From Escherichia coli (GTDB taxonomy: Bacteria > Pseudomonadota > Gammaproteobacteria > Enterobacterales > Enterobacteriaceae), in assembly GCF_022846255.1 (NCBI RefSeq), contig NZ_AP025682.1: 64,000 nucleotides of DNA; one strand, written 5' to 3'. Every line of letters starts with the position of its first letter. Position 1 is the stretch's first letter. Of this stretch, positions 61,301 to 64,000 are shown one piece after another. The position numbers are program-made.

Positions 61301-64000
61301 TACCGGGAAACTGGCGTGGAGCTACCAGACCGTTCACCACGACCTGTGGGATATGGATCTTCCGGCACAGCCGACGCTGGCGGACATCACCGTTAATGGT
61401 CAGAAAGTGCCGGTCATTTATGCTCCGGCGAAAACCGGCAACATTTTTGTGCTCGATCGTCGCAATGGTGAACTGGTGGTTCCTGCCCCGGAAAAACCGG
61501 TTCCCCAAGGTGCTGCTAAAGGCGATTACGTGACCCCTACTCAACCCTTCTCGGAACTGAGCTTCCGTCCGACGAAAGATTTGAGCGGTGCGGATATGTG
61601 GGGAGCCACCATGTTTGACCAGTTGGTGTGCCGCGTGATGTTCCACCAGATGCGCTATGAAGGCATTTTCACGCCGCCATCTGAACAGGGTACGCTGGTC
61701 TTCCCGGGTAACCTGGGGATGTTCGAATGGGGCGGGATTTCCGTTGATCCGAATCGTGAAGTGGCGATTGCCAACCCAATGGCACTGCCGTTTGTTTCGA
61801 AACTGATCCCACGCGGTCCTGGTAACCCGATGGAACAGCCGAAAGATGCCAAAGGCACGGGTACGGAATCCGGCATCCAGCCGCAGTACGGTGTACCGTA
61901 TGGCGTCACGCTCAACCCGTTCCTCTCACCGTTTGGTCTGCCATGTAAACAGCCAGCATGGGGCTATATCTCGGCATTGGATCTGAAAACCAATGAAGTG
62001 GTGTGGAAGAAACGTATTGGTACGCCGCAGGACAGTATGCCATTCCCGATGCCTGTACCGGTGCCGTTCAATATGGGTATGCCGATGCTTGGCGGGCCAA
62101 TCTCCACGGCGGGTAACGTGCTGTTTATCGCCGCTACGGCAGATAACTACCTGCGCGCTTACAACATGAGCAACGGTGAAAAACTGTGGCAGGGTCGTTT
62201 ACCAGCGGGTGGTCAGGCTACGCCAATGACCTATGAAGTGAATGGCAAGCAGTATGTGGTGATCTCCGCAGGCGGTCACGGTTCATTTGGTACGAAGATG
62301 GGCGACTATATTGTGGCTTATGCGCTGCCGGATGATGTGAAGTAAGGCTTGCTCAGATTGCTGACAACGTGCGATTTGTTCATGCCGGATGCGGCGTGAA
62401 CGCCTTATCCGGCCTACAAAACATTTGCAAATTCAATACATTGCGCGTAGGCCTGATAAGCGTAGCGCATCAGGCAGTTTTGCGTTTGTCATCAGTTTCA
62501 TGCCCGGAGAGATCCGGGCATATTTCCGAATACGGTCTTTTTATACCGTAAACCCTAACATCATCCCCGTATCTTCATGCTCCAGCAGATGGCAGTGCGC
62601 CATATAAGCATGTTCTTTCGGTGCATCGTGATTAAACTTCACCAGCACTTCGCTGACATTACCTTCTACCTTAACGGTATCTTTCCAGCCTGCGCGATGC
62701 GTCGCTGGCGGTTTGCCATTTTCTGACAAGATACGGAACTGCGTACCGTGGATATGGAACGGATGCAGCATCATGTCGCCCACGCCAGAGATAACCCAAC
62801 GTTCGTACTGCCCTTTCGCCGCCGCAAACATCGGCTTATTCATATCAAACGCCTGACCGTTGATTTTGTTGGCATGGTGGAAATCAAACTTCCCGCTGTG
62901 GTTCATATGATTCATATTGCCGTGCCCCATATGGCCCATCATCTGGCTGTGATCCATCCCGGCCATCGCCTGATCGCCATATTTCTCCATCAGCATCTGC
63001 ATCCCCATCATATCGAGCATTGGGTCCATAGAAAGTTGCAGCTTGCGTACCGTCAGCCCCTCCAGCGAAGGTAACGCAGGCAGGCTACTTAATGTGTCTG
63101 GCAAAGCACCAGAGGCACTAATGGCAATCGGCTGAATCCGCATTACCGGATGCGGCTTGTCAAACGGCGCAATCGCCATCCCCATCTGGCTGACCGGCAG
63201 CGTCACCAGGTCAAAGGGTTTGTTGTCGTTAACCTCCACCAGCACTTCAAAACGCTCGCCCATCAGCACTGGCAGCTCGTTCACCTTCACCGGTTCAGGT
63301 AGCAGACCGCCGTCGCTGGCAATCACATAAAGCGGGCGATTGTCGCTGGTGGCGAAATTGAGCGAGCGGGCATTACAGCCATTGAGCAAACGCAGGCGCA
63401 GCCAGCCACGCGGGGCAGCGTGTTGCGGGTAGATTGCACCGTTGGTCAGCAACGTATCGCCAAACCAACCCACAGCGGCGGTCATCACATCCAGTTGATA
63501 ATCAATCTGCCCGTCAGCGTTAAATTTTTTATCCTGAACAATCACCGGGACATCATCAATACCCCACTGTTTTGGCAGCATTAATTTCAGGATCTCGTCA
63601 TCTTCAATCACCACCAAACCAGCCAGCCCCATCGCCACCTGACGTCCGGTCTTGCCATGTTGATGTGGATGGAACCAGCAGGTAGCGGCAGGTTGATCAA
63701 CGTTCAACGTCACCGAGCGCTTGCCACCTGGCGGAATAATTCCCTGCGGGCCGCCGTCCACTTCACCCGGTACTTCCAGCCCGTGCCAGTGCAACGTCGT
63801 CTCTTCCGTCAGTTGGTTGTAGATATCAACCGTTACCGCTTTGCCACGCTGTAATTTCACCGCCGGCCCCAGCAGATTGCCGTTATAGCCCCAGGTAGTT
63901 GCGGTTTTCCCGCCAAAGGTGGACTGACCTGCGCCAATAGTTAACTGAATGCGATTACGGGCATCGGTCGTGAGCAAATCAGGGATTGGTAACGTTGGGC

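Follow-up and report, generated by a model that had tools for sequence, protein, structure and literature searches.

In Escherichia coli, each BIME-1 element pairs a z1 with a y REP across an L linker that contains an IHF site, and is present in single copy (PMC3333891, PMC2817692). Strong gyrase binding has been described for a different group, BIME-2 and the atypical BIMEs (PMC2817692, PMC3333891), in which y and z2 REPs with short linkers form tandem arrays. In Pseudomonas, RAYT transposases are proposed to mobilise inverted REP doublets known as REPINs. The published cleavage rule for the REP-associated transposase is C|T, and a y head is not cleaved (PMC3333891). REP sequences also serve IS621, an IS110-family element with a bridge-RNA recombinase, and the 11-mer ATCAGGCCTAC is a published natural IS621 target (PMC11208160). 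At the RNA level, a model holds that Rho-dependent transcripts end at protective stem-loops that have no U-tract and that include some REPs (PMC6061677).

Here we analysed the spacer between two convergent genes in a 64-kb stretch of E. coli DNA, hereafter the window. The upstream ORF (59937-62345, + strand) ends with a TAA stop codon at 62343-62345 and the facing ORF (62541-63977, - strand), whose translation ends in GMMLGFTV, has its stop codon at 62541-62543; the orthologous flanking genes are gcd and cueO in the RefSeq annotation. The intervening 195 bp are made up of two unrelated elements, a BIME-1 copy at 62354-62495 and an older stem-loop at 62500-62521. We put the probability at roughly 85% that this spacer combines a dispensable, non-autonomous, selfish-type BIME-1 insertion with an older, locus-specific hairpin, together acting on RNA and DNA as proposed below. 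The two REP units, the palindrome and the further hairpin that the initial annotation had listed are all found in the window sequence.

REP units were sought with a fuzzy regular expression comprising the head GCCKGATGCG, the tail CTTATCMGGCCTAC and a GTAG/CTAC foot. REP1 is of the y type and lies at 62383-62417 on the + strand (TGCCGGATGCGGCGTGAACGCCTTATCCGGCCTAC), while REP2, of the z1 type, is inverted relative to it and occupies 62447-62476 on the - strand (TGCCTGATGCGCTACGCTTATCAGGCCTAC). Heads and tails of both units match the REP consensus with 0 mismatches, which bears out the reading of the spacer as a REP/BIME cluster. A search with a fixed-length 37-nt REP consensus returned 0 matches because the loop lengths of REPs differ. 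In addition, REP2 (62446-62475, - strand) has exactly the sequence of the z1 30-mer with which Durrant et al. queried for REPs, and REP1 agrees with the 35-nt y query of the same authors at 34 of 35 positions, differing in a single loop base. The + strand of REP1 ends in CTAC, which makes it an 'iREP' in the Ton-Hoang convention; the GTAG foot of REP2 points to the linker, so that the CTAC and GTAG feet both face it. The 64-kb window holds no other full REP, and both units are extragenic, lying between the gcd and cueO stop codons. Genome-wide, the median number of REP-matching places is at least 39-40 per genome.

Alignment with paralogs placed the two REPs within a complete BIME-1 (RIP/RIB-type) unit of 142 bp at 62354-62495, with boundaries good to about 2 nt, in the order left flank, y REP, L linker, z1 REP and right flank. 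The repeated unit therefore starts to the left of position 62380, where the cluster had been drawn initially, an extension that had been overlooked. The left flanking motif CAGATTGCTGACAACGTGCGATTTGTTCA (62354-62382, + strand) is conserved among paralogs and the right motif GTTTTGCGTTTGTCATCAG (62477-62495, + strand) in those at nagD and fepA-entD, the two flanks forming an imperfect inverted repeat with each other. Paralogs of the unit lie next to an ISVsa5 copy and at the nagD, rnr-rlmB and fepA-entD loci. Nearly every genome also has copies elsewhere, which an 87-nt probe detected at 89-93% identity, and a 37-nt probe over the left flank matched a median of 6 places per genome. The K-12 copy at gcd-cueO is probably the one entered as 'RIP' in the GenBank and EcoCyc annotation. 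The copy of the NC_000913.3 annotation examined here lists no repeat feature at the K-12 gcd-cueO locus.

The linker, delimited by allele and paralog alignments, spans 29 nt (62418-62446) and can be aligned with the L linkers of the paralogs. Compared with the K-12-type linker it is shorter by a net 6 nt, the difference being a 7-column gap by the z1 foot minus one extra base at the 5' end. Within it lies an IHF-like core, ATTCAATACATTG (62431-62443, + strand), which agrees with the consensus WATCAANNNNTTR at 12 of 13 positions, in contrast to the perfect core AATCAATGGATTG carried by the K-12-type and O157-type alleles, as by most filled E. coli alleles; a ATTCAATA[C/T]ATTG core is also present in the paralogs. 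A scan for the motif with one mismatch allowed gave 62 matches against 53.6 expected, which is not above chance, and it is therefore homology to the BIME-1 family that argues for IHF binding. REPs are not mentioned in the text of Prieto et al., an IHF study. On DNA, the linker would probably serve as an IHF-bending site, as for the rest of the family, and more weakly here than in the K-12 type. Of the earlier proposal that the element binds both IHF and gyrase, the IHF part thus stands as a BIME-1 property, whereas strong gyrase binding belongs to the other class of BIME.

With one y REP, one inverted z1 REP, a long conserved L linker, an IHF-type core and the flanking motifs of its paralogs, and with a single extragenic copy at the 3' ends of transcription units, the element is an already-known, ordinary kind of E. 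coli repeat, BIME-1. The single-unit rule is obeyed in the window, which holds just two REPs, and is broken by other strains at the same locus. REPs in alternating orientation are shared with BIME-2, as is tandem amplification, in this second case by other strains at gcd-cueO only. We ruled out the BIME-2 class for the window copy on account of its L-type rather than S-type linker, its single unit and its z1 rather than z2 REP, the central segment of REP2 being 5 nt (the short z1 form) compared with about 12 nt in z2. The Pseudomonas REPINs likewise share the inverted REP doublet with a spacer, multi-copy and non-autonomous nature and the coexistence of filled and empty sites, and the predicted folds of the BIME include a single long hairpin in addition to the two short ones. 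However, REPINs belong to another sequence family and host, and the indel junctions at the window locus show no convincing fit to the published C|T cleavage rule.

Immediately beyond the BIME, we found a non-REP stem-loop at 62500-62521, ATGCCCGGA-GAGA-TCCGGGCAT, which is a perfect palindrome of 9 pairs (6 of them G-C) with a 4-nt loop, is unique in the 64-kb window and lies one base to the right of the position first given for it (about 62499-62520). Its predicted folding energy is -17.2 / -16.8 kcal/mol (z -5.4 / -5.7). The hairpin does not vary among the five E. coli alleles, and an ortholog directly follows the gcd stop codon in Citrobacter, Klebsiella and Raoultella. Across genera, compensatory changes occur at two of its pairs (GC/UA/AU and UA/AU/CG); selection of the aligned sequences by the pattern GCCCGG...CCGGGC fixed the six GC core pairs in advance. 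In Klebsiella and Raoultella the orthologs have an A-tract and a T-tract, as canonical bidirectional terminators do, and the E. coli hairpin resembles them in being GC-rich, stable and situated between convergent genes. Of the features of an intrinsic terminator it has the GC-rich stem-loop and lacks the 7-8-nt U-rich tract directly after the stem: there is no U-tract beside it on either strand (+ tail AUAUUUCC, - tail GAAACUGA), and a terminator scan of the spacer found nothing. In being without a U-tract it is like the protective stem-loops of the Rho model (PMC6061677). Judged from these comparisons, the 62500-62521 stem-loop is an older, separate and locus-specific gcd/cueO hairpin of the terminator type, ancestral across the Enterobacteriaceae, where it marks both genes at their 3' ends, with a role in E. 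coli that we infer. The older, non-REP nature of the palindrome had been overlooked in the initial annotation.

To describe the locus across the species, 5,426 complete E. coli genomes were surveyed with junction and allele probes, which distinguished at least six allele classes. The site is empty, without a BIME, in 2,369 genomes (44%) and filled in about 2,740, so that the predicted presence/absence polymorphism of the spacer is both real and large; that the whole BIME is missing from 44% of E. coli had gone unnoticed. Since so large a share of genomes does without it, the BIME is dispensable for the host. The linker type of the window is found in 220 genomes, 128 of which have a third REP that originated in a 61-bp duplication. 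Both REPs are lost in a further 94 genomes, including Nissle 1917, CFT073 and ATCC 25922, through a 118-bp deletion. In the cryptic-lineage strain Escherichia sp. MOD1-EC7003, the y-L-z1 unit is amplified to 8 tandem copies, an array that runs against the textbook single-copy BIME-1.

The junctions of these alleles bear on how they arose. The 118-bp deletion lies exactly between two copies of the 8-bp direct repeat TTCATGCC, at 62379-62386 and 62497-62504 (both + strand), and the deletion allele keeps exactly one copy. This deletion lies at a y head; the junction of the 61-bp duplication is ambiguous, its two sides reading C|T and C|A. We considered RAYT cleavage at C|T as the cause of both events and do not favour it, given that slippage between direct repeats fits the deletion and that the duplication has a C|T on one side only. 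The initial annotation had described such elements as hotspots of REP-associated transposase activity; no indel at this locus points to RAYT, and the mobile element that we did find is IS621. The z1 REP carries an exact and intact copy of the natural IS621 target ATCAGGCCTAC, with its CT core, at 62447-62457 (- strand), which is unoccupied in the window. In strain WY517-2, IS621 is inserted at exactly this position of the orthologous REP, and the WY517-2 junction recurs at ≥99% identity in 188 genomes, so that a perfect native target of the bridge recombinase is occupied in about 3.5% of genomes. On the reading we favour, the palindromes would make the spacer mutable by favouring deletions and duplications through slippage, and IS621 would find a perfect bridge-RNA target in the z1 REP.

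At the RNA level, neither the BIME nor the hairpin is expected to be an efficient intrinsic terminator, because no U-tract lies behind them. In K-12, supplementary file 2 of Adams et al. 2021 reports a region of Rho termination at MG1655 138442 (-), antisense to cueO, with a Rho score of 3.44 (p 5.4e-6). This region lies about 190 nt past the spacer rather than within it, and may be tied to gcd; the - strand RNA stopped by Rho within cueO might instead start at an antisense promoter. Neither the TERMITe supplements nor the Term-seq 3' ends curated by Adams et al. 2021 contain an entry for gcd or cueO. We propose that gcd read-through would be stopped by Rho some 190 nt into antisense cueO and would then be trimmed by 3'-to-5' exonucleases to the first stable stem, which would be the conserved hairpin for gcd mRNA and the REP hairpins for cueO read-through.

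Several other explanations of the spacer were weighed against this one. That its palindromes are chance features of GC-rich DNA is vanishingly improbable. Two REP tail motifs occur in the 64-kb window where 0.01 would be expected by chance, copies of the BIME family recur genome-wide, and none of 200 shuffles folded as well as REP1 (-21.3 kcal/mol, z -5.3), REP2 (-12.9 / -13.2 kcal/mol, z -3.5 / -4.0) or the 62500-62521 palindrome. Both REPs are imperfect palindromes, with an internal bulge or mismatch in the fold. Chance does fit one structure, the hairpin TACGGT-N8-ACCGTA over the cueO stop codon (62531-62550; -6.2 / -8.0 kcal/mol), for which z is about -2.3 and 4-6 of 200 shuffles were as stable. 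This hairpin, earlier noted as overlapping the cueO stop, is present in the sequence but weak, and three related Escherichia loci (L006, L007 and L008) have a broken left arm with no compensating change; the hairpin is probably fortuitous and not conserved. It is also very unlikely that the spacer encodes a small RNA, of the ES036/CssrF or naRNA4 kind, or a small protein. Matches to naRNA4 over REP1 (38.2 bits) and to ES036 over the linker (31.7 bits) stay below the Rfam gathering scores of 59.5 and 37.6, respectively, and reflect the fact that these families are themselves REP/BIME-like in sequence; a whole-window Rfam scan gave nothing at threshold in the spacer, and no promoter-like site was found in 62000-62900. 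Two + strand ORFs of 60 and 72 aa (62369-62551 and 62389-62607) can be drawn through the region. We rejected them as genes, as they take no account of the cueO reading frame and run through repeat sequence that 44% of genomes lack. More substantial, yet still quite unlikely, is the possibility that the BIME is a working, selected terminator or attenuator of gcd and/or cueO, acting through Rho-dependent attenuation as described for BIMEs. A contribution of BIMEs to Rho-dependent termination has been reported (cited in PMC2817692 and PMC6061677), Rho terminates downstream in K-12, and several Escherichia lineages have retained the BIME at this site. However, almost half of E. coli genomes have the hairpin only, the REP deletion and the IS621 insertion have removed or interrupted the BIME in others, and the K-12 Rho region lies well beyond the spacer, all of which argues against a selected role.

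In addition, we asked which state of the site came first. The empty E. coli allele reads TAA-CCATA-ATGCCCGG and Citrobacter amalonaticus reads TAA-TCATA-TTGCCCGG, and in C. sedlakii the hairpin also begins 5 nt past the gcd stop codon. Because of this resemblance to Citrobacter, the short, BIME-free spacer shared with that genus looks, from sequence comparison, to be the ancestral state. The filled alleles do not differ from the empty one by a clean insertion: CCA is missing from them, and they contain additional nucleotides that do not belong to the family sequence, 8 on the left and 2-4 on the right. It is nevertheless conceivable, although unlikely, that the empty allele is derived and that an ancestral Escherichia BIME was excised or deleted. 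At least four other Escherichia lineages (L006, L008, L009 and L010) have the BIME in this position, with an identical left junction, GAYTTGC, so that an ancestral empty site requires an old cross-species polymorphism or recombination, and REP-flanked deletions do happen at gcd-cueO. Against a derived empty allele, the 5-nt CCATA and hairpin context of the empty allele is nearly equal to that of C. amalonaticus, the divergent Escherichia genome L007 is also empty, and CCA is found at neither junction of any filled allele, which means that a deletion could not recreate it. A related and doubtful proposal takes the spacer as a before/after record of BIME-1 mobility, brought about by active, hairpin-targeted insertion and amplification rather than by recombination or slippage. 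Across E. coli and in at least one other Escherichia lineage, filled sites are found alongside empty sites of the ancestral type, and the BIME is inserted directly 5' of a GC-rich hairpin. If this proposal were true, the locus could expose the in vivo mechanism of BIME-1 spread.

Taken together, our results describe a dispensable BIME-1 copy beside an older hairpin. For genome annotation this is of little consequence, as a textbook repeat stands in a textbook place and half of the species is without it. The gcd-cueO spacer is, at the same time, a clean and quantified case of one BIME making a spacer hypervariable, and the pair of filled and empty alleles allows a direct test of the effect of a BIME-1 on gcd/cueO mRNA stability or on IHF occupancy.

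The 195-bp spacer between the end of gcd (62345, + strand) and the end of cueO (62541-62543, - strand) contains two REP sequences, a y-type REP at 62383-62417 and an inverted z1-type REP at 62447-62476, both of which match the classical consensus that we used (head GCCKGATGCG, tail CTTATCMGGCCTAC) with 0 mismatches, confirming that they form the BIME proposed in the initial annotation. Two occurrences of the tail motif were found in the 64-kb E. coli window, compared to 0.01 expected by chance, and no other full REPs were found there. The z1 REP is the same sequence as the z1 30-mer used as a REP probe by Durrant et al., the y REP differs from their y probe by a single loop base, and both fold far better than every shuffle. 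A perfect palindrome, ATGCCCGGA-GAGA-TCCGGGCAT, was found at 62500-62521, one base from where it had been reported; it is unique in the window and has a z-score of about -5.5. The hairpin noted over the cueO stop does exist (62531-62550), but since its z-score is only about -2.3 and three related Escherichia loci have an uncompensated break in the left arm, we treated it as fortuitous.

Alignment of the spacer with its matches elsewhere in E. coli genomes revealed that the repeat extends beyond the REP pair and spans 142 bp (62354-62495). From left to right, it consists of a flanking motif (CAGATTGCTGACAA...TTGTTCA), the y REP, the conserved linker, the z1 REP and a second flanking motif (GTTTTGCGTTTGTCATCAG). 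The unit is also present downstream of nagD, between rnr and rlmB and between fepA and entD, and the left-flank probe alone identified a median of 6 places per genome. BIME-1 elements have been defined by a z1 and a y REP, a long conserved L linker, often with an IHF site in it, and one copy per locus (PMC3333891; PMC2817692), and, judged by its sequence, the gcd-cueO unit fits this definition. The earlier suggestion of IHF and gyrase binding is therefore half right: IHF goes with BIME-1, whereas strong gyrase binding has been attributed to BIME-2 and atypical BIMEs (PMC3333891; PMC2817692). The IHF-type core in the window, ATTCAATACATTG, departs from WATCAANNNNTTR at one position; as a bare motif, a match of this quality is not above chance (62 one-mismatch matches found versus 53.6 expected), and the case for IHF is based on homology to the family linker rather than on the motif. 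The K-12-type and O157-type alleles of the same locus carry a perfect core (AATCAATGGATTG), and their linker exceeds that of the window by 6 nt overall. At the level of DNA, the element would be a probable IHF-bending site, a property of the family, with a weaker core in the window allele. At the gcd-cueO locus of Escherichia sp. MOD1-EC7003 (L008, 1828-2685), we observed eight tandem copies of y REP, L linker and z1 REP with a period of 107 bp and 96% matches, an IHF-type core in every copy, and a terminal hairpin with one stem mismatch (ATGCCCGC...). This array is at odds with the single-copy description of BIME-1 in the literature.

We additionally searched 5,426 complete E. coli genomes with junction-specific probes, each seedable only by the allele in question. 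The presence or absence polymorphism that the initial annotation had proposed to look for turned out to be large, with 2,369 genomes carrying an empty 46-bp spacer and about 2,740 a filled site. Filled sites include 1,669 with the exact K-12-type linker and 220 with the window-type linker; most of the others probably have a linker close to the K-12 type, as in the O157-type allele. The window-type linker with a third REP was found in 128 genomes, a 118-bp deletion that removes both REPs in 94, and IS621 within the z1 REP in about 188. The exact window allele, with two REPs and a short linker, is a minority (roughly 90 genomes). In the three-REP allele (E. coli A13, L002, 346-603; strain 317, L090), 61 bp made up of the left flank and y REP are duplicated in tandem; the two copies are identical in 5 genomes and two substitutions apart in 123, indicating an event that is not recent in most carriers.

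The empty site has the sequence TAA-CCATA-ATGCCCGG, compared to TAA-TCATA-TTGCCCGG in Citrobacter amalonaticus, and the hairpin of C. sedlakii also lies 5 bases past the stop. CCA was found at neither junction of any filled allele, so that deletion could not have recreated the empty sequence. From these sequences we conclude that the ancestral state was empty and that the BIME was inserted. The insertion is old, and four other Escherichia genomes (L006, L008, L009 and L010) share the BIME together with its position and left junction. Since another divergent Escherichia genome (L007) is empty, both states span species boundaries, reflecting either a retained polymorphism or recombination. The two states are not related by simple cut-and-paste, as filled sites carry additional bases that are not family sequence, 8 at the left end and 2-4 at the right. 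In Escherichia whittamii (L009), a frameshifted remnant of an IS200/IS605-family TnpB (about 1800-2500; Pfam OrfB_IS605, 2e-17; Cas12f1-like TNB domain, 7e-22) directly follows the gcd stop, which is TGA there, and adjoins a degenerate BIME copy. In this species and in Escherichia sp. E1V33 (L010), approximately 700 bp separate the BIME from cueO and include a 137-aa ORF (L009, 2652-2924, and L010, 1953-2366, both on the - strand) with no Pfam family, the best match being PsbP at 0.0096, below cut-off. E1V33 also has a different hairpin (CGCCTGTATTACAAAATACAGGCG) in place of the ATGCCCGG palindrome.

The palindromes themselves offer the best explanation of the indels. The 118-bp deletion, whose carriers include Nissle 1917, CFT073, ATCC 25922 and 83972, ends exactly at 8-bp direct repeats (TTCATGCC, 62379-62386 and 62497-62504) and is a classic short-direct-repeat deletion over a hairpin-forming segment. 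The locus had also been proposed as a hotspot for REP-associated transposase, yet its deletion and duplication junctions provided no positive evidence of this activity, because the left breakpoint of the deletion falls within the y-type head, which is not a TnpA-REP cleavage site (Ton-Hoang et al., PMC3333891), and C|T is seen at just one side of the junction of the 61-bp duplication (AAAAC|TGAC). IS621, an IS110-family bridge-RNA recombinase, is the mobile element that demonstrably uses the locus, and was found in the z1 REP of this BIME in E. coli WY517-2 (L091, 1224-2501). It is inserted between GTAG and GCCTGAT within ATCAGGCCTAC, a published natural IS621 target (PMC11208160), and this 11-mer is intact in the z1 REP of the window (62447-62457, - strand). 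The junction was detected at at least 99% identity in 188 of the 5,426 genomes and at 90-95% identity in a further 272, which we take to carry IS621 in other BIME-1 copies.

The palindrome at 62500-62521 is distinct from the BIME and older. All five aligned E. coli spacer alleles carry it unchanged. Among 80 related genomes, fetched via the Gcd C-terminus, Citrobacter, Klebsiella, Raoultella and others have a GCCCGG-loop-CCGGGC stem after the gcd stop, and in Klebsiella and Raoultella it comes with the A-tract and T-tract that characterise a canonical bidirectional intrinsic terminator. Across 11 aligned sequences, two stem pairs vary on both sides with pairing kept (GC/UA/AU and UA/AU/CG), the six core pairs being invariant by construction, since the sequences were selected on them. 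No U-tract follows the E. coli stem on either strand, and a terminator scan of the spacer was empty. Elsewhere in the window, a palindrome at 59177-59207 (GCCGGATG-CAACA-CATCCGGC) lies between two convergent ORFs, presumably can and hpt from K-12 gene order; its arms are REP-head-like (TGCCGGATGC), without a REP tail or GTAG foot, and it is probably the shared terminator hairpin of the two ORFs. The only above-threshold Rfam matches in the window, t44 RNA (11559-11645, - strand, 83.5 bits) and the HtrA 5' UTR thermometer (20481-20526, - strand, 77 bits), are both expected in this part of the E. coli chromosome.

In K-12, a Rho termination region has been listed antisense to cueO at 138442 (- strand; Rho score 3.44, p 5.4e-6; Adams et al. 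2021), approximately 190 nt beyond the spacer when read in the gcd direction and equivalent to ~62732 in the window. Together with the absent U-tract, this agrees with a model put forward by Dar and Sorek (PMC6061677), in which transcription continues through the structures until Rho halts it further downstream, after which 3'-to-5' exonucleases shorten the RNA to the first stable stem. The gcd RNA would be processed in this way, with the conserved hairpin as its predicted first stem, which would place the BIME inside the 3' UTR, while cueO read-through would encounter the REP hairpins first. Alternatively, the - strand RNA that stops antisense to cueO could start at an unmapped promoter; the Term-seq data of Adams et al. 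2021 and the TERMITe datasets contain no mapped 3' end for gcd or cueO. The only terminator-like site in a scan of 62000-62900, TGGCGGTTTGCCA followed by TTTTCTGACA at 62706-62718 (+ strand, cueO antisense), lies ~15 nt before the window equivalent of the Rho region, with 1.3 such sites expected by chance from shuffles. Given that nearly half of E. coli genomes lack the BIME and others have it deleted or interrupted, any effect of the BIME must be dispensable.

Overall, the initial observation was confirmed, with a correct identification and partly correct functional claims, and the element is already known, being a typical representative of a long-known family, located next to a conserved hairpin of the terminator type. 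It is only mildly unusual, in its filled and empty polymorphism across species and in the eight-copy BIME-1-type array of MOD1-EC7003.
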